NCBI RefSeq assembly: GCF_003018255.1
Contig: NZ_CP027440.1
Length of the DNA: 64,000 nt
Source: Escherichia coli
GTDB lineage: Bacteria; Pseudomonadota; Gammaproteobacteria; Enterobacterales; Enterobacteriaceae
Strand: one strand, 5' to 3'
Shown: positions 10,011 through 40,621 of the stretch, one piece after another
How positions within the stretch are numbered: the stretch's first letter is position 1
Layout: every line of letters begins with the position of its first letter
The notes under the pieces: model-generated
Databases searched by the model: none
What the model saw: only the letters and a program-made list of their open reading frames with translations
Told to the model about the DNA's origin: nothing
Made by a program: the position numbers and the translations under genes

Positions 10011-11546
10011 TTAGTGTTTCTTGTCATTCATCACAATATAGTGTGGTGAACGTGCACGCGGGTGCAGGAAGAAGTGACCTTTTGGTGCGTTCTGACTGTT
10101 GATTGGCTCCAGAGTGACGCCGGTATTCGCTTTGCTTTTACGATCATGAACAGCATAGAGAATAAAGGGCAGGGCAAGTACCACCAGGAAACTCACGACC
10201 AGTAATTCAACATACATATCGGTAGAGTCACCCTGGATGTTATCCGGCGGCAGGAAGGAAACAATAAACGCCATAATTGAAGTCAGCAGACCGACAATAG
10301 CCACGACCAGTTTCACCCCTTTACCACCAGGGATATTAAATGTGCGTTTTAAGTCAGGATGTTTAAGAACCAACACAATGTAGCCAATAAACAGCATGAA
10401 ATAAGCACACAGATAAATCACCACCGTCAGCGCCAGTGCGATCAGGAAGGACATGTTGTTACCGCCACCGGTATTGGTGAGGATGATCAACGCGATAGAA
10501 GTAATCACCAACTGCGAAATGACCAGCGTTACCGGTACGCCATTTTTGTTCATTTTAGCGAATGCCGCTGGCAGCAGGTTTTTCTGCGCTGTGACATACA
10601 TCCCGCGAGAAGGACCAACAATCCAGGAAGCGATTTCCGCCAGAACACCCAGCAACAGCAGTGCGGAGATCACGCGAACCGTCCACTCAATTTCCGGTGC
10701 CACATGTGACATCAGAACGGTAAAGGTTTGCATTACCCCTGCGGAGAGGTTGATTTCATTACCCGGAATGACCATCGCAATAGACAAACCGCCAACAGAG
10801 CTTAAGCAGATTGCCGCCACCATCAGCAGTAACATAGCCAGTGGATAGTCGCGCCCGGGATTGCTCATTTCATTGACGTGGGTTGCGGAAGCTTCAACGC
10901 CCATATAACTCAAAATGAAGGCAACAAATACAACCAGGGTGCCCACTTTAGAGAAGTCAGGGAAGAAGGTCTTCGAATCCATTTCGATAGCAACGGGGGC
11001 ACCGGAGTGCAGATAAATAGCCGCTAATGCGATCAAAATAAATGCAGGTAACAGGATACCGGCGAAGAAGCCAACTTTAGCAATTCGCGCCGTGTATTTC
11101 GTGCCACCAAACTGCGTTAATGCCAGCGCCCAAAGAATGATGAGTGCTGCAATAGTTTTGGTAATGGGGTCTTCATTCAGCGCTGGCCATTTCAGGATGT
11201 AGGAGAGTGCCCCTAACACGAAATAGAGCATCGGAATAAAACCAATGGCGATTTGCAGATAGCCAAATGAGATCGCTGCAAATCCCCATCTCGGCCCCAG
11301 AGTATTTGATACCCAGGCGAAGACGCCACCTTCTTCCCAGCCGTCGACGGTAGCCATTTCCGCAGCACAAAGTCCCACGGGAATAAACCATAAAATCCCG
11401 CCTAATAGCAGGAAGAAGACTAATGAAAAGCCCGATGTTGCGAAGGTAGGGTATTCATAAACAGCCATTACCATCGATGCCGTTATGGCAAAAAATCCGA
11501 GTAATGTGAGCTGCTTAGCTTTACCTGTCTGTACTGATGTAGCCAT
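10011..11546 (-). CDS. gadC: Glutamate:GABA antiporter GadC (511 aa)
   Basis: 511-aa polytopic membrane ORF downstream of gadB; sequence recognised. Confidence 0.95.
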
Positions 11547-29909: not shown

Positions 29910-32561
29910 TTAGCGACAGATTGCTGTCTGCTGGTTCAGCAAGGTTTCAGGAGAGACTGCAGGAAGCTTGTACTCGACAATACAGTTTGAGTTTTTATCT
30001 TTGCCCCATGAAACCTGTAATTTCCCTGACTGTGGAAGTCCAGTCAGATAAACCTGACCGTTTTCCGCGACAATGCTGCCATTTTTATTCTCCCCATGTG
30101 TGACAATTGCACCGAATGGAACGCTCTTATTACCGTACTTCAACGTCATTAATACTTTCCCGCCGATTTGTGCATTAAATGTTGCTCTGGCAATAGCACC
30201 GTGAGTTGGGATGACAGTGACAACGGTTTCATCCAGTTCAACATTATCTGCAAGGGAATTCGCGTTAAGAGCGACACGATTTTCTCTATATTCTGTCGCA
30301 AATGGTAATATGGCATAGCCACGCCAGTCGGTATGAATTCCGGTCTGGTTCTCTATTTTGACATTATCAGCGCCAGGAGCCTTAACCAGAACCATTGTGT
30401 CGCCCAGCGGCTGTCCAAAGGTGATGCCATCAGCATGAGCAATAATGCCACCACTCATTCCGTAATAAATCTGGCTGCTGTCACCACTCCGACTGTAACC
30501 GACATTCGTATTACCGTAAGCTCCACGATAATTAAGAGAACTGTAACCACTGGTGCCAGACGATGTATTACCCCCTTGGGTGTTACCGACCTGAACGCTA
30601 TAATTCAGGTTATTATCCGGCAGCAGAGTGCCATAAACCCCTGATAGGTTGGTCATGCCGCCTTTCAAATCGTTTGACATACTGTAACTGGCGTTTGAAT
30701 TACGAAATGCCGACTGACTGTCTGTACGCATCCAATGACTGAAGGGAACATTAAGCGTAAAAGCAAGTAAATGATCCCGATCGTTTTGCCATATATTATT
30801 GGAATAGCTGTAATTCAGCGAAGTCGTAATATCACCAAACGGCACATTTAATCCAAATGATATTTGCTGGTCGCTGCGTGACGTGTTCCAGTAACTTTGG
30901 CGACTGGCACTGAAAAATGTCGTACCGTAATGTCCAAGCTGCTGAGAGATGCTTATTTGTTCCTGACCACGCTTACTGTAAAACAGATTAAAATAATCAA
31001 TAAATAGTGTCTGCTCATTGCTGTCTCCGGTAGGAGGCTTGACGGTGTAACCACTCATTCGACTGTAGGCACTGTCGGATAAGTTATAAAAACCTTGCGT
31101 AGAATAGCGATATCCTGCGACCTGGATATTGGTTCCCGTCTGGTAGAAGGATTTGCTGTAGACGGATTTAACCGATTGTCCGCTGTGACGGGTGTCATCT
31201 GCAAGCGTCGTATTGGCCTGCGTGATATCGAAAGAAAAGGCACCAAAAAGTCCTAAATCTTTACCAATACCAAGGTTGAAGGCCTGATATTCTTCTGCAA
31301 TTTGCATTCCGCCATAAGGTGTCCAGTTTCCTTCCAGTCCATGCATCAAGCTACCTTGTATGAATTTGGGGGAGCTTTGCAGGTTATTTCCACTACGATA
31401 TTCCCCCATGGCAAGCGCATAACGCGTATATCCAGCACGTTGGAGAACCGGAACAGACGAATAAGGAACATATAATGTCTGAATACTGCCGTCTGCATCT
31501 TTTATGGTTACTTGCAGATCACCACCATTGGCCGCAGAGTTGATATCATCAATAGTAAAAGGGCCGGGTGGGACAGTAGTCTGATAAACATCGTATCCAT
31601 TCTGTTTTACACTCACTTGTGCGGTGCCGCGGGCAATACCATGAATCACCGGAGCGAAACCATGTTGGCTATCGGGCAACATCGCTTCTGTTGAATTTAT
31701 TTTGAGGCCACGAAAGTTTACACTATCAAAAATATCGCCATCGGTATAACTATCACCTACCGTTAAGCGTGAGCGTAAGGGAATAATGTCACGTTCAGCC
31801 GACGTATTGATATGCTGCCATTTATTGCTGTCAGATGAATTGCTACTCCCACTGTTATAACTCCACGTTGAGTTATCGCGCAGTCGCCAACTACCAATGT
31901 TGATGCCACTCTGTAAATTCAAATATGCATAGTTGGATTTTCCTGCATTATGGTTACTACGATTATTAATAGAATTACCATTAAAACTATAGTTTAGTAG
32001 CCCAGCATTTATTCCTTCTTCCCACAGATCCGGAGAAACATAGCCGCGAGCCATTCTGCCAACATAAATTTGCGGAACGGAGAGTGATAGATGTTGCTGA
32101 CCAACATTAAACTCAGATGATGCGTCAGCCAAACGATCCCGAAGTGGTGTGCATGCGCTGTTGTCCGACACATGTTTTTCTGCCGAATGTTCCTTATTGT
32201 CTAATAATGCAGATTTTTTTATGCCAAGACTGACAAGAAGATCTGTACTCAGGCATGGGATGAGATCTGCGTTATTATCATCTGCAATAAAAGTAATATC
32301 CCGACTAGTCATAAATTCGTCGTTCAAATAAATGTCGACCCGATATGTACCAGGTGGTGCCTCGTGTCCCTTAGTAAAGGCGGATAAATCGACAGATTCA
32401 GCAAGATCATTGCTTAAAAACCGTGGATTAAAATAATACTCTGCGTCAACGGGAAAAACCGCAGTTGCTAAGCCAAGGGCAATGGTAAGCCGTGCAAAGC
32501 GAGGCAGTAGTAACACCTGATGCATACGATATGCCTTAAATGCGGCACGAAAGGCTGTCAT
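29910..32561 (-). CDS. ydeT: Full-length F9 fimbrial outer-membrane usher, FimD-like (871-883 aa depending on start)
   Basis: 883-codon ORF collinear with FimD throughout (for example YLNLQSGINIGSWRLRDNSTWSYN, FAPVIHGIARGTAQV); N-terminal half present. Confidence 0.9.
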   Translation of the reverse strand: MTAFRAAFKAYRMHQVLLLPRFARLTIALGLATAVFPVDAEYYFNPRFLSNDLAESVDLSAFTKGHEAPPGTYRVDIYLNDEFMTSRDITFIADDNNADLIPCLSTDLLVSLGIKKSALLDNKEHSAEKHVSDNSACTPLRDRLADASSEFNVGQQHLSLSVPQIYVGRMARGYVSPDLWEEGINAGLLNYSFNGNSINNRSNHNAGKSNYAYLNLQSGINIGSWRLRDNSTWSYNSGSSNSSDSNKWQHINTSAERDIIPLRSRLTVGDSYTDGDIFDSVNFRGLKINSTEAMLPDSQHGFAPVIHGIARGTAQVSVKQNGYDVYQTTVPPGPFTIDDINSAANGGDLQVTIKDADGSIQTLYVPYSSVPVLQRAGYTRYALAMGEYRSGNNLQSSPKFIQGSLMHGLEGNWTPYGGMQIAEEYQAFNLGIGKDLGLFGAFSFDITQANTTLADDTRHSGQSVKSVYSKSFYQTGTNIQVAGYRYSTQGFYNLSDSAYSRMSGYTVKPPTGDSNEQTLFIDYFNLFYSKRGQEQISISQQLGHYGTTFFSASRQSYWNTSRSDQQISFGLNVPFGDITTSLNYSYSNNIWQNDRDHLLAFTLNVPFSHWMRTDSQSAFRNSNASYSMSNDLKGGMTNLSGVYGTLLPDNNLNYSVQVGNTQGGNTSSGTSGYSSLNYRGAYGNTNVGYSRSGDSSQIYYGMSGGIIAHADGITFGQPLGDTMVLVKAPGADNVKIENQTGIHTDWRGYAILPFATEYRENRVALNANSLADNVELDETVVTVIPTHGAIARATFNAQIGGKVLMTLKYGNKSVPFGAIVTHGENKNGSIVAENGQVYLTGLPQSGKLQVSWGKDKNSNCIVEYKLPAVSPETLLNQQTAICR

Positions 32562-33675: not shown

Positions 33676-34239
33676 TTATAGATATTGAACTTTGAAGGTC
33701 GCATCAGCGTTTGCAGTACCAGCTACTGACTGCCCGAGAGCAATATAACGAGCCTGGAACGGCAATATATTCGTGCCATCAATCAAGTCAGTTTTAGCGC
33801 TAAAAGTGGCACCATCAAGTATTAATACCTCCCCCGTACGGTCCAAAATTTGAATACCGACATTTTGGGCAGAGCCTGCCGCTGAACTCTGCAGCGCTAA
33901 CGTATCGTCATTACTGGTGACAGTAGTACCCAGGAATGCAACAGCTGCATTACTGGAAACATTGGTATCACAATCATTCAGCTTGATATTGAAGCCAACG
34001 GCGGAGCTGAGGTCACCCGCTTTAGCCAGACGAGAAGAACGGACCTGACCCAGCTCAACCGTTTGGTTCATTGATTCTGAATCAATCGCACAAGCGGCAT
34101 TTACCACTTCACCTTTAAAATGAATAACACCGCCATTAACAGTGGTCGTTACTGATTCATCACCCTCGGCTGCGCTTACCGCAGCAGACGACATCGCCAA
34201 TACAGAAACGACAATCATACCGACATGTTTGAGTTTCAT
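33676..34239 (-). CDS. F9 fimbrial major subunit, FimA-like (187 aa), start ATG at 34239 ([23 protein letters not shown])
   Basis: Strong similarity to FimA ([21 protein letters not shown]...[12 protein letters not shown]...[11 protein letters not shown]); GGAG RBS 6 nt upstream. Confidence 0.88.
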
Positions 34240-34672
34240 AATTCTCCAAAATTTATATTTAAGTAGCTGAATAAAGAGAGTTAACAATTAAGTCATTCTG
34301 TTATTGCTTATAAAACAAGAATCATTCTTAATTGGTAGTTGCCCTGAGAATATAGTTTCCAGGGTTATTACATTTCACGAAGAACGATAATATCTTTAAA
34401 TTACAAGGACACCTAATCACAACAAGTTTATTGCAGCACTTGTTGTAGAGAGTATTTGCAAAGACATTTTATGTCGCTAAATAACATGACGATTTCATTA
34501 TGCATGTTATTTATAAACCGTGACTAAACAGAATATTATTGCGAACAAGGGAAGTGTCAGGAAAGGTCAAGAGCGACCAATGGTTTATATGGCTATAAAT
34601 CATTAGCCATAGTTAATGTTTGCCTGGTGTAACTAACACGGAATTGCTCTAAACAGATAAGTGTAGGGTTTA

Positions 34673-34927
34673 TTAAAGCTGACCGACAGACTTTCTTAAC
34701 CTGGTAATATCTCTCTTAGGTGACTCTCCAAACATCCGCGAATATTCCCGACTGAAATGGGATAAGCTTTCGTAACCGACAGCATAGGCTGCAGTGGTGA
34801 CATCGTAATGTTCATTCAGCATCAGTCGCCTGGCTTCATTGAGGCTTAGCCATTTCCGATACCGGAGTGGACTCATTCCCGCAAGCTGTCTGAAATGTTG
34901 ATGGAAAGAGGGGGTGTTCATTTGCAC
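34673..34927 (-). pseudogene. yneL: AraC-family regulator C-terminal fragment (84 codons)
   Basis: ORF encodes only the second HTH of an AraC-type domain (...LSHFSREYSRMFGESP...); no N-terminal domain upstream in frame. Confidence 0.7.
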
Positions 34928-35214: not shown

Positions 35215-36531
35215 TTAATACCATTCTCGGCTTAACCGACGGTGCAACCTCAACACATTGGTTTCAACTGCCGTCACCACGTTCTCCGGAAAATCTGTCG
35301 GTAATGAAGTCTTCACGTTATCCAGTGCTGCCGGAATCATTCTGGCAAAGTCACTCAGGATTTCATGCATCTGCACTTGCGGAAATTTCAGCACCTTTGC
35401 TGTCGCCAGAAAATGTCGCGGATAAATTTTATCGATTGCCGTTTTTTTGCCTTTGGATGCGTTAAGCCCCATTGCCAGTTTGAGATCGCTGATGTGTATT
35501 CCTGCACCACCCAATACCGGAAATGCTGAAATGATGTCGTAAAATGGCGTGAGTCGATAACTGCCGCCAGCCTGAATAAATACGGAGAAGTTTTTTGCAT
35601 GGCCATCCGTTGCGCCAATCAACCACTGGAACACCTGAAACTTCATAAAATCATAGCGATCTTTCAGCGCCTCGCTGGACCCCATCAAAAAAGCCATGAT
35701 CCGCGCGATGCCTGGGCCTCCATCTGATTCATATTTCACCGATGAAGGTAAACCGAATGTCTGACACATATCCTCCTGTGGCAAGCGAAGTAAAACCGTT
35801 CGCTCAGCATTCCAACGCCTGTCAAAACGTTCGACCGCTAACGCGCGCACATTTCCCGCTTTAATGATTTCTGCGTCCGGCACATTCAACCCAAGTTCTT
35901 TAGCCAGCAGCAGACAGTAATACTCATTATCAACGCTTTGGCTGAGATCGAGCGTCGCATTGGGCTGCCTGATTTCGCCAATCGGTAATTTAATGATGTG
36001 CGTCGTCGGCGTTATTCCTTTCGGAATGCACCAGTCATTGCCTATTCTGAGCAGCGCTGTCTTCTCCTGCGCGCCAGCAACCGAGATGCGAAAGTCATTT
36101 TCTTCTCTAATCATGCCCAGAGGGATATCTGCTTTATAAGCCGTTAATACTTCTTCAAACCTGGCTTCAGTGAGCTGTTCCCATGCCATTATCGGGCGCG
36201 TTATGGTTTCATTTTCGGGTAATAACGTTACGGCACCAACGCTGTCTCGCCCTATTTCTGACAATAAATCAAACGGTTGTCTGGATTTAGCATGATAACG
36301 TTTAACGATCCGATCACGTACAATCGGGCTATCGGGTAACAGGTTATCGAAGAAGTTAAATACGGCATCAGAGGTGATATTCCCCCTCTGCAATGGCAGC
36401 GAAAGTGACAACGGTCTGGCATAACGGCTGGCTAACCACTCCGGTGCATACTTAAAGGTGTGCGCGCCATTGGCTAACTTCGTTAACTCGCCTACCCGCT
36501 GGTTGTTCATCCAAGTGACAAGTTTAGGCAT
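35215..36531 (-). CDS. hipA: Serine/threonine kinase toxin HipA of the HipBA toxin-antitoxin system (438 aa)
   Basis: ORF 35215..36588 trimmed to MPKLVTWMNNQRVGEL; start ATG overlaps the hipB stop by 1 nt (TAATG). Confidence 0.93.
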   Translation of the reverse strand: MPKLVTWMNNQRVGELTKLANGAHTFKYAPEWLASRYARPLSLSLPLQRGNITSDAVFNFFDNLLPDSPIVRDRIVKRYHAKSRQPFDLLSEIGRDSVGAVTLLPENETITRPIMAWEQLTEARFEEVLTAYKADIPLGMIREENDFRISVAGAQEKTALLRIGNDWCIPKGITPTTHIIKLPIGEIRQPNATLDLSQSVDNEYYCLLLAKELGLNVPDAEIIKAGNVRALAVERFDRRWNAERTVLLRLPQEDMCQTFGLPSSVKYESDGGPGIARIMAFLMGSSEALKDRYDFMKFQVFQWLIGATDGHAKNFSVFIQAGGSYRLTPFYDIISAFPVLGGAGIHISDLKLAMGLNASKGKKTAIDKIYPRHFLATAKVLKFPQVQMHEILSDFARMIPAALDNVKTSLPTDFPENVVTAVETNVLRLHRRLSREWY

Positions 36532-36797
36532 TACCACTCCAGATCTTGCTGTTCTGTTGATTCTGGCGAGGCATTTTTCGTGTCGCATAGCGTCATTGAG
36601 AGTTCAAGCGACTGTAAAATCTTAAAAAAGGTCGTCAGCGTGGTATTGTCAGGGTTGTTTTCGAAATTGGAAATCGTCGCCTGCTTAATACCAATTTTTT
36701 TCGCCAGCTCGCTCTGCGTCCAGCCATTTTGCTGGCGAACCAGTTTCATTGCATTCGCCAATTGCGTTGGGCTATAGATCTTCTGAAAGCTCATCAT
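36531..36797 (-). CDS. hipB: Antitoxin and transcriptional repressor HipB (88 aa)
   Basis: MMSFQKIYSPTQLANAMKLVRQQNGWTQSELAKKIG... Xre-type HTH; recognised. Confidence 0.93.
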   Translation of the reverse strand: MMSFQKIYSPTQLANAMKLVRQQNGWTQSELAKKIGIKQATISNFENNPDNTTLTTFFKILQSLELSMTLCDTKNASPESTEQQDLEW

Positions 36798-36818
36798 GTC
36801 ATACGTCCACAGCAAATT

Positions 36819-36931
36819 TATCCGCTTAAGGGGATATTATCAGTTTTATCCTTTAGTGAGGATAAGTCAATCTGGAAACACATCTTATCCGCTCTACGGG
36901 ATAAACACTGTGATATCCGCGATCGCGGATA
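36819..36931 (-). promoter_or_regulatory. hipBA promoter with four HipB operators (TATCC-N8-GGATA)
   Basis: Four sites: tatccgcttaaggggata (36819-36836), tatcctttagtgaggata (36847-36864), tatccgctctacgggata (36886-36903), tatccgcgatcgcggata (36914-36931). Confidence 0.85.
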
Positions 36932-36968
36932 AAAAGGAGGATTTAAAAGTCGTTTGAAGTCGGCAATA

Positions 36969-38945
36969 TTAAGCCGCATGCATCTTCGACATGCGGCTAT
37001 TCCCTTGGGTATCGCCTTTTACGTTCATCTTATCGGTGGGCGAATTATCGCCGCCCAGCGTCGCGTTGAACGTCATCAGGCCATTGTTTCCGGTATAGTT
37101 ACCGTTAACGGTCAGTACATTCCCCGGTTTCCCCCCTTCGCTGTTCATTTGAACCGTGCCACCATTCTCCAGGTTACCGCCGACAGTGGTTTTAGCGACA
37201 CGCAGTGTCCCCCCTGGCATAACGTTCACATCACCTGCAGTGGTGACATTTCCCGACATCACACCGCTGTTATGGATATTAATGTGCTGACTTGCCATAT
37301 TAATGGCAGAGTCGGAACCGAAAGCAATTTCACCACCCACGATATCCGTCGTACCCTTATACGCCGCGGAATCTTTGTTAAGCGTCAGGATCCCGGTACC
37401 CAGTTTTGTCACATCACCGCTACCGCTGATACTGTGCGTCATCACCCAGCTACGCTCAGTGGAGATGGTGAGCAGGCCATTATTGATAACGGAAGCATCA
37501 CCCAGGTTTTTCTGCTCGTTGACGCTAAGCGCGCTGCCTGTATCAATGTTGAATTGCCCCACAAAGCGGCTATTATCGCCATCCAGCTCTACGTCTGTCC
37601 TGGCGGTTGCGCTCACGATACCCTTCCCGCTTATGCTATTACGCAGTTCGCCGGTCACGTTTTTTAGCGTTAACAGACCGTCATTGGCAATATTTCCTCT
37701 GCCTAACCCCTGCGTATTATCGAGGCTGACTTCCGCATTTGGGCTAATGCTGGTTAACGCATTGTAGCGTGCATTAAGCCCCTCGATAGCCAGTGTTCCC
37801 CCTGTAACATTCAGGTTTCCGCCACCTGTCAGTTCGCCCTGACTGATCCCACCTTTATTCACCGTCAGCGACCCCTCTTTAAACAAAACAGTCGAACCCA
37901 TTTGCCCGGTGAATGTCTCTACCGTCTGGGTCGATCCATTAAGATCGACGATGGCCGCGTTGCTGATGTTCAGTTCCCGGGTGTTGCCCAGCGCGCCATC
38001 CGCATCGGTACGTAATGTCCCCATCTGAACGTAGGTTGCCCCCTGATAGTCGTTCTGACCGTTGGAAAGCGAAACCTGTCGTACCGTATTGATTGCCAGA
38101 TCCCCTTCGCCACCGATTTTTGCCGACATATCGACCGTTGCGCCATAAGCTCCGCCATGTTCGGCTAACGTCAGCTTTTGCCCACCATGGATGTTCAGCG
38201 CTTTCAGCCCATAGTTAACATACAAACCATCACCAGGTGCGGTCGTGAGGCGGAATCCATAATCACCCTCGGCGACCACCGTTCCGTTTTGCGCAATATG
38301 TAACGTTTTGTCCGCTTCCACCTCGTCGCCCTGTAAATCACGTAACGTTAATGAACCACCCGATCCAATAACCGTTTGCGCCTTCACCAGTTGAACGCCG
38401 ACATGGCTATCGTCGTGTTCCATCAAATTGAGCGTCGTCAGAGGGTTATTCGCCATGGGATCATTCCACGGTTTAGGCACGTCGATAAGCACGTCGCCCA
38501 TCCCGTTTACCTGATAGTTACGGCCTTTCCAGGTGTAGTCACCCGCGCCGACAACCAGCGTATCGACGCTGATATATCCCTCCGCAAGCGTCGCAGCAGG
38601 TATATCCGTATCGAACGTGAGCGTACCGCCATTCATGGCTAGTCCACCAATGGATTGCTCTCCCACTTTTACCGATGTGGTATTTTCACTGTCAGACTGC
38701 AGCATCGCGTAAGTAAGCGCAGCGGTGTTGTCGCGTTCCAGTGCGAAGGTACTGGCTTTCAGTTGGGCAACACCGGCGAATTCAGTCCCTGCTGCATGGG
38801 TAAAGCCAAACATTTTGTCGGAGGATGACAGCTGCACTCGCATCAAGCCATCGCCTTTGAGCGCATTGATCAGCGTGAATAGCAATTTCCCCTTGAATAT
38901 AGTACTGGTGATGGAACGATGAATCTGCAAGCTGGCATTTAACAA
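36969..38945 (-). pseudogene. yneO: AIDA-like autotransporter passenger-domain fragment; no signal peptide, no C-terminal beta-barrel
   Basis: 658-codon ORF of glycine-rich beta-helix repeats (GGTL, NGG, TLN motifs), starts without a signal sequence and ends ...GNSRMSKMHAA; lies between hipB and lsrK where the yneO pseudogene sits. Confidence 0.7.
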
Positions 38946-39028
38946 GCCAGCTCTAAAAGAAGGGAAATGAGAATACCAATACTCAAAAACTAACAGCCAC
39001 GGTCATCATGGTGTGGCTGTCAATGAAA

Positions 39029-40621
39029 CTATAACCCAGGCGCTTTCCATAACGACGTCGTCAGTCCATGATCAACCAGCCCCAGCTGATCCTGATAAAC
39101 TGCCTGCCACTTATCGCGTGAATCCTGATAAAGTTCATGCTTTTCCGGGTCTGGTGTGTGCGTCCGTTCCCAACGAACCAGGCGTTCTCCGGTTTCTGCC
39201 ATTGATGAAAAAATTCCGGCACCGACGCCAGCTGCAATGGCACATCCTAATGCAGTGGCTTCTTTGACCACCGGAATATTGACGGGTAATCCCGAGACAT
39301 CAGCGAGAATTTGACTCCATAATTTCCCTTTTGAACCTCCGCCAGCAAAAACCAGCGAGGTGGGATGAATATTCGAGAAATCAGCAATTTGCTGTAAGTT
39401 ACACGCTGATACAATCGCCGCATTTTCTTCCAGCGCACGGAACAATGTCGCTTTGTTACATTTATCCGGGTCAATGGACAAGTTAATAAAGGAAGGCGCA
39501 GCGTGATACCAGGTTTTAAAGCGCATTCTGTCGGAGAATATCGGCATTACGCCCCACGACCCAGGCGGCACCCGACTGGCCATCTCTTCCAGCAGCGTAT
39601 AGGTGTCGATGCCTAAACGTTCGGCAATCAGTTTTTCTTCGGCACAGAAAGCATCGCGGAACCAGCGCATGGTGAGTCCGGTAAAAAAGCTTATAGATTC
39701 AGCTTGTACCATGCCAGGAATAACATGGGGATTAACGCGCACGTTCATTTCTGGGTCTGTCACCGGCGCGGCTAAGTTTACAACTTGCTGCCAGAATGTG
39801 CCGCCAAGAACCGCGGTTTGTGCCGGACGTACAACGCCTAACCCCAGGCAACCAAGCTGCACGTCACCTCCTCCAACGACCACCGGAGTGCCCGCCTTCA
39901 GACCGCAGAGTTCCGCCGCTTGTGAACTTACCACACCCAGCAATGTGCCGGTTTCTTTGACAGGAGAAAGAATATCGGCACGCAGGCCAGCCATATCCAG
40001 CAATGCAGGTTTCCAGTCACGGGTGGTTAGATCAATAAGTCCCGTGGTGCCAGCGTTAGAGGGATCCACCGCAAGTTCACCGCTGAGCATATAGGCCAGC
40101 CAGTCGCTGATCATGGTGATGGTTGATGCCTGACGGTAAATATCGGAACGATGGTGCGCCAGCCAAAGTAATCTGGGGATGGCGCTTAAAGCCAGCGTTT
40201 GCCCGGTCGCTCGATAAACTTTGTTTTCAAAGGTATTGTTGTGCAGTTCTTTAAGTTCGTTAACTTCGCGCGCCGCTCTGGCATCCACATTGGCGCAGGC
40301 CCAGATCGGTGTTCCTTCATTGTTATATAAAACAATGCCTTCACGCATCGAACATGCCGAAACAGCAGCGATATACTCCGGGGCTATGCCGGCGTTGTGC
40401 AGCGCCTGGCGCATACACTCACACGCCAGTTGCCAGTTTTTGTTGAGATCAAATTCCATAGAACCAGGAACGTCCGGTACTGCCAGATGCCGCCACTCCG
40501 CCTGTCCCACGGCTATTTGATTGCCTTCCGGGTCGAATATCACAGCCCGAATACTTCCGGTGCCTGCATCCAGCGCCATCAGGTAGTACTTTGATTCTGA
40601 AGGGGTAAAGAGTCGAGCCAT
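39029..40621 (-). CDS. lsrK: Autoinducer-2 kinase LsrK (530 aa)
   Basis: 530-aa FGGY-family sugar kinase ORF; recognised. Confidence 0.94.

Follow-up and report, generated by a model that had tools for sequence, protein, structure and literature searches.

The open reading frame between hipB and lsrK

The window, as we call the whole 64,000-nucleotide stretch of Escherichia coli DNA that was analyzed (contig NZ_CP027440.1), carries hipA, hipB, the yneO locus, lsrK, and lsrR in the same order as K-12, SE11, and others. According to the ORF list, hipB (36531/36588..36815, minus strand) has hipA downstream of it, and lsrK occupies 39029..40621 on the minus strand with lsrR and lsrA beyond it. 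The hipA gene (35215-36531, minus strand) is intact and encodes a protein of 438 aa, compared with 440 aa in K-12, with 97% identity; its C-terminus reads ...HRRLSREWY here and ...HGRLSREY plus three more residues in K-12. The 457-aa hipA ORF of the mechanical list is an extension to an upstream ATG that overlaps hipB.

At the yneO position lies an ORF of 658 codons (36969..38945, minus strand), which starts with a TTG codon, ends in ...GNSRMSKMHAA, and follows lsrK on the same strand at a distance of 84 bp. It is as described in the initial annotation, which had been made from the sequence without database searches and had recognized in it a Gly- and Asn-rich passenger fragment of the yneO autotransporter, devoid of signal peptide and β-barrel. 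The composition agrees with this description: glycine accounts for 14.1% of the residues, threonine for 10.2%, and asparagine for 8.5%, and cysteine is absent. Type Va autotransporters need a signal peptide for Sec export across the inner membrane and, for outer-membrane insertion and passenger translocation, their own C-terminal 12-stranded β-barrel. Searches against Pfam matched neither the ESPR (PF13018) nor another signal peptide in the ORF, nor the autotransporter β-domain PF03797. The matches obtained were limited to a PATR repeat and the initial ~60% of the AC_1 autochaperone profile (PF18883 AC_1/Pertactin; positions 5-68 of 114, against 5-114 in the SE11 protein), leaving the autochaperone incomplete.

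Residues 23-652 of the ORF align with positions 764-1393 of the 1806 positions of the NCBIfam model NF011422 (ECSE_1600 family autotransporter). With 1406.8 bits, the match stays under the cutoff of 2335 bits that applies to full-length proteins, and the ORF represents only part of a family member, not a complete one. The intact reference, E. coli SE11 WP_001443608.1 (1806 aa), is also encoded between hipB and lsrK; by BLASTP, its residues 764-1393 are identical to the same part of the ORF at 612 of 630 positions (97%), without gaps. These matches and the orthologous position between hipB and lsrK confirm that the ORF is a yneO passenger-domain fragment. In the SE11 protein, the ESPR covers residues 1-47, PATR 1253-1281, AC_1/Pertactin 1332-1452 (AC_1 1332-1438), and the β-barrel 1525-1784. 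The pieces of the K-12 pseudogene give the same domain picture, ESPR included.

The coding remnant derived from yneO extends over 36990..38879 (minus strand), ORF codons 23-652 corresponding to ECSE_1600 residues 764-1393. Both extremities of the ORF have another origin. The artificial N-terminus, made of 22 codons with the TTG (38880..38945, minus strand), is former lsrK-yneO intergenic DNA read in frame; in SE11 and K-12 it corresponds, by alignment, to spacer DNA located 380-450 bp before the yneO ATG. Inspection of the sequence revealed no Shine-Dalgarno motif upstream of this TTG "start." At the other end, the final six codons (...SKMHAA) and the stop codon are the DNA of a hairpin located after yneO, likewise read in frame.

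The ORF had also been credited with β-helix repeats, which were held to generate long spurious antisense ORFs. A β-helical passenger fold is indeed predicted by the PATR and AC_1 matches and by homology to IcsA. However, TRF and a repeat finder showed the hipB-lsrK interval to be free of DNA repeats exceeding 17 nt, whether tandem or dispersed, and any repetitiveness is structural only. The antisense ORFs exist (plus strand, 36954-37667, 237 aa, and 37303-37767, 154 aa, from the ORF list), and no plus-strand feature over 36954..37767 is annotated in any RefSeq record inspected. The 237-aa ORF is read in exact reverse-complement register with the sense codons, a register in which only sense TTA, CTA, or TCA codons produce stops. 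These represent 15 of the 659 sense codons, none of them among the last 232. The resulting open run of 232 codons exceeds the 95th percentile (208) of codon-shuffled controls, whose longest run in that frame averaged 136 ± 38 codons. According to these controls, antisense ORFs of such order are expected from codon usage. Their length is therefore due mainly to the rarity of TTA, CTA, and TCA and not to sequence repeats.

Two deletions and the surrounding regulatory elements

We aligned positions 36500-39200 of the window with the loci of K-12 DH1, EC581, O139:H1 W13-16, and SE11. Three collinear blocks were obtained against the four loci and, compared with SE11 and K-12, segments of 1260 and 2666 bp are missing. 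Measured between the start codon of hipB (36815) and the stop of lsrK (39029), the interval is 2213 bp long here, 6174 bp in K-12 DH1, and 6159 bp in SE11. The initial annotation had put it at about 2.1 kb and the pseudogene region of K-12 at roughly 5 kb; in DH1, the pseudogene amounts to 5422 bp.

Junction A (36998..36999) is the scar of the deletion of 1260 bp, with SE11 and K-12 as references. The missing segment comprises codons 1394-1806 together with the stop codon and extends 8 nt further. AC_1 thereby lost its second half, and both the linker and the PF03797 β-barrel disappeared. The endpoint of this deletion is the exact foot of the hairpin 3' of yneO. Junction B (38877..38880, with the breakpoint at about 38877/38878) is the scar of the 2666-bp deletion, again relative to SE11 and K-12, which removed about 380 bp of the lsrK-yneO spacer, the yneO promoter, the start codon, the ESPR, and passenger codons 1-763. 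Both the signal peptide and the β-barrel, correctly reported as missing, fall inside segments deleted relative to SE11. Each deletion has one endpoint outside the coding region. Microhomology is limited to ~1 nt at junction A and 0 nt at junction B, the locus alignments contain no IS remnant at either junction, and TRF and repeat searches found no repeats able to mediate the deletions. Both events therefore look like simple illegitimate deletions.

A one-deletion intermediate was searched for with a chimeric query in which junction A is present and the junction B site is intact. No genome gave a one-piece match; the top matches were undeleted alleles aligned in two pieces with at most 98.4% identity. 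The closest undeleted relatives, with 98.1-98.4% identity, are those of EC581 (yneO at 5420-10212) and O139:H1 W13-16 (4069-8861). Both are pseudogenes of 4793 nt that miss about 630 bp in the 5' third and are frameshifted near nt 400-470. Judging from these alleles, yneO may have been inactive even before deletions A and B took place.

The regulatory region of hipBA was unaffected by either deletion. Four hipB operators of the form TATCC-N8-GGATA, for which 0.02 matches per window are expected by chance, were found by pattern search at 36819..36931. They overlap the hipBA promoter TTGACT-16-TAAAAC (36843-36870, minus strand), whose motif is listed in PMC3946193, and operators and promoter are both intact. 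The stop codon of the ORF (36969-36971) is 37 bp from the outermost operator, where about 40 bp had been estimated. A fifth perfect match to the operator pattern, at 31111-31128 and 5.7 kb from hipBA, is probably due to chance.

Conversely, the ORF is left without a recognizable promoter of its own. In K-12, yneO has a constitutive RpoD promoter, CTGACA-17-TTTAAT (Shimada et al. 2014, PMC3946193), which maps to positions 10907-10935 of the K-12 locus (L002), within the deleted span 8567-11232. No counterpart of this promoter is present in the hipB-lsrK interval of the window. A promoter scan, in which the total number of sites was not above that of shuffled sequence, gave no minus-strand promoter-like site upstream of the ORF. 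The lsrK intrinsic terminator (38980..39024, minus strand), a 12-bp stem followed by UAGUUUUUG (-16.9 kcal/mol, z = -2.75), is retained between lsrK and the remnant. Beyond the other end of the remnant, the hairpin at 36972..36998 (minus strand; fold of -19.9 kcal/mol, z = -3.2) is located 8 nt past the yneO stop codon in intact alleles, as deduced from the alignment to K-12, SE11, and O139:H1, and it is probably the ancestral yneO terminator stem. A simple terminator scan did not call it because of its weak T-tract. An Rfam scan of 36500-39300 (E ≤ 1) gave no credible RNA family, the only match being a chance one to an lncRNA, of 18 bits.

The other side of hipBA also differs among strains. 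A fimA-like major subunit gene is kept there (33676-34927 and leftwards), as in SE11 and strain 104, both of which have an intact chaperone and an intact usher gene upstream of it. In the K-12 region compared with it (L002 1620-3309), the fimA-like and chaperone genes are missing and the usher (ydeT) is truncated. K-12 is therefore the more decayed of the two at this side, and the genome studied here the more decayed at yneO. A pseudogene fragment of an AraC-type HTH gene (34673-34927) is common to the window, SE11, strain 104, and K-12.

Distribution of the short allele and selection

The population counts are based on 5426 complete E. coli genomes, 5340 of which gave some match to the interval. 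In 3734 genomes (~69%), at least 80% of the hipB-lsrK query is covered in one place; the rows sampled among these consist of two pieces spanning a longer locus. Junction A was found in 85 genomes and junction B in 74, and the short form represents ~1.5% of complete E. coli genomes. Avian sources (chicken, turkey, poultry, other) account for 32 of the 60 junction-A genomes listed out of the 85, and the carriers of this junction include APEC O2-211 and O78:H4 APEC strains. With many carriers being poultry or APEC isolates, junctions A and B provide simple lineage markers. In strains 2017.09.02CC and 104, PGAP annotates the equivalent of 36990-38879 as a pseudogene, "incomplete; missing N-terminus and C-terminus."

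Eleven genomes have junction A without junction B. The two that we inspected, MDR_56 (NZ_CP019903.1) and E7 (NZ_CP104523.1), lost junction B through later, larger deletions. MDR_56 lacks the equivalent of window positions 38522-39454 and E7 that of 37729-40061. These nested deletions remove, together with junction B, the 5' part of the remnant, 22% of it in MDR_56 and 62% in E7. The remnant is therefore still eroding and dispensable. The same deletions take the 3' part of lsrK (426 bp in MDR_56 and 1033 bp in E7). From these sequences, both strains should lack the AI-2 kinase and be defective in AI-2 processing and lsr operon induction. The lsrK-truncating deletions of these sister strains carry more biological weight than the remnant itself; the allele of the window does not have them.

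Over the 630 codons shared with SE11, dN/dS is 0.13 and dS is 0.10. We rejected this low ratio as a sign of current function: it integrates a long period with an intact gene and mostly reflects divergence from that time. Within the deletion clade, the remnant differs from those of strains 104 and MDR_56 at only 11-12 positions, which are too few for selection testing. Ten of these differences are clustered in 220 bp (38280-38500), and eight of the ten are synonymous. The clustering suggests a small patch of homologous recombination inside the pseudogene in the deletion-bearing lineage.

Status of the remnant and its known relatives

We conclude that the ORF is almost certainly a nonfunctional remnant of yneO (ECSE_1600 family) that lost both ends by two illegitimate deletions. 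These would have occurred in an ancestor of the lineage. At the 5' end, the gene lost its promoter, start codon, and signal peptide along with the N-terminal 763 residues; at the 3' end, it lost the final 413 residues, among them half of the autochaperone and the whole outer-membrane β-barrel. Without signal peptide and barrel, the remnant cannot be secreted. It lies behind the lsrK terminator with neither a promoter nor a ribosome-binding site of its own, and we infer that it is neither expressed nor functional, although some read-through of the lsrK terminator is possible. At face value, the open 658-codon frame and the dN/dS of 0.13 against SE11 speak against a dead remnant. However, the frame is open because it is an in-frame middle piece of a gene that was long under purifying selection. 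Both junctions are also, by chance, free of stops until the flanking noncoding DNA supplies the TTG and the TAA. Compared with its intact orthologues the ORF is truncated and lacks its own promoter, start, and native stop, and close relatives (MDR_56 and E7) tolerate further loss, as is typical of a pseudogene. The decayed adhesin gene proposed in the initial annotation is thus a doubly truncated yneO remnant, in agreement with the call made by PGAP. It is an ordinary pseudogene that has already been annotated as such.

It is very improbable that the truncated ORF is instead a new functional gene, although it is open, has the orientation of lsrK, starts 84 bp downstream of it, and persists as an allele in 74-85 complete genomes. 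Read-through from lsrRK would in that case produce a cytoplasmic or retained β-helix fragment, which would hence be induced by AI-2. We consider it just as improbable that such a fragment has a selectable effect in this mostly avian-associated lineage. The TTG lies in former spacer DNA with no promoter and no Shine-Dalgarno sequence, the lsrK terminator intervenes, and a passenger deprived of signal peptide and barrel cannot reach the surface. Moreover, the deletion of 22% and 62% of the remnant in sister strains gives no sign of constraint, and PGAP treats the fragment as a pseudogene.

We give still less credence to an assembly artefact or a repeat collapse, by recombination between passenger repeats, in place of two illegitimate deletions. 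The structural repetitiveness of autotransporter passengers, and the fact that collapsed repeats are a common artefact in genes of this kind, would favor it. Here, however, the interval has no tandem or dispersed DNA repeats above 17 nt, the junctions show 0-1 nt of microhomology with one noncoding endpoint each, and they are found identical in 85 (A) and 74 (B) independent complete genomes. Within the limits of the tools used, these results refute an artefact or a collapse. The short form might also be thought ancestral, the 1806-aa gene having arisen from it by insertions. This is equally implausible, and we found no support for it. The fragment lacks a native start codon, signal peptide, barrel, and stop codon; what bounds it is spacer and terminator-hairpin DNA, located outside a complete gene in all other genomes; and ~1.5% of the genomes have the short form against ~69% with at least 80% query coverage, in which the sampled rows show a longer locus. 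An ancestral short form is refuted by this ORF anatomy. The doubly deleted remnant has a practical consequence for annotation: ORF-based annotators will call a 658-aa "autotransporter" that is unsecretable, and the pseudogene flag applied by PGAP is apt.

Among known autotransporters, the protein had been assigned to the AIDA type, which is correct only in a loose sense. The label "AIDA-I family autotransporter YneO" is used by EcoCyc (as quoted in PMC10782963). However, the Pfam AIDA repeat PF16168 matched neither the fragment (E ≤ 0.1) nor the full SE11 protein (E ≤ 0.01), and "AIDA-I family" is a database name only. The second-best family is that of the fibronectin-binding autotransporter adhesin ShdA (NCBIfam NF011847; E = 2.3e-19, residues 274-562). 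ShdA is of the same general passenger type, but at 68 bits, against a cutoff of 2249, the fragment falls far short of membership. Among solved structures, sequence similarity was detectable only to those of IcsA (VirG), the actin-nucleation factor of Shigella (PDB 3ML3, E = 2.3e-5, and 5KE1, E = 5.5e-4), hence the nearest solved relatives; both are β-helical passenger or autochaperone pieces of this protein. This similarity is distant, is confined to the C-terminal third of the fragment (residues 454-650), and implies no functional equivalence.

The closest comparison remains with yneO itself. Relative to SE11 WP_001443608.1, the remnant lacks residues 1-763, including the ESPR, as well as the promoter, and residues 1394-1806, with half of AC_1, the linker, and the β-barrel. 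According to Oshima et al. 2008 (PMC2608844), SE11 and HS have an intact ECSE_1600, the gene is disrupted in MG1655, E24377A, and O157 Sakai, and B2 strains lack it. The locus described here adds another example of a decaying adhesin gene at a site whose variability among E. coli strains is already documented (PMC2608844). The orthologous yneO of K-12 (b4696; formerly ydeK/ydeU) is a pseudogene too. It has kept all of its 5422 nt and carries one +1 frameshift near codon 1320, whereas the remnant is open across that site and has lost 3.9 kb in two deletions. As originally proposed, the gene is more reduced here than in K-12: the locus is ~3.9 kb shorter than that of the full-length, singly frameshifted K-12 gene.
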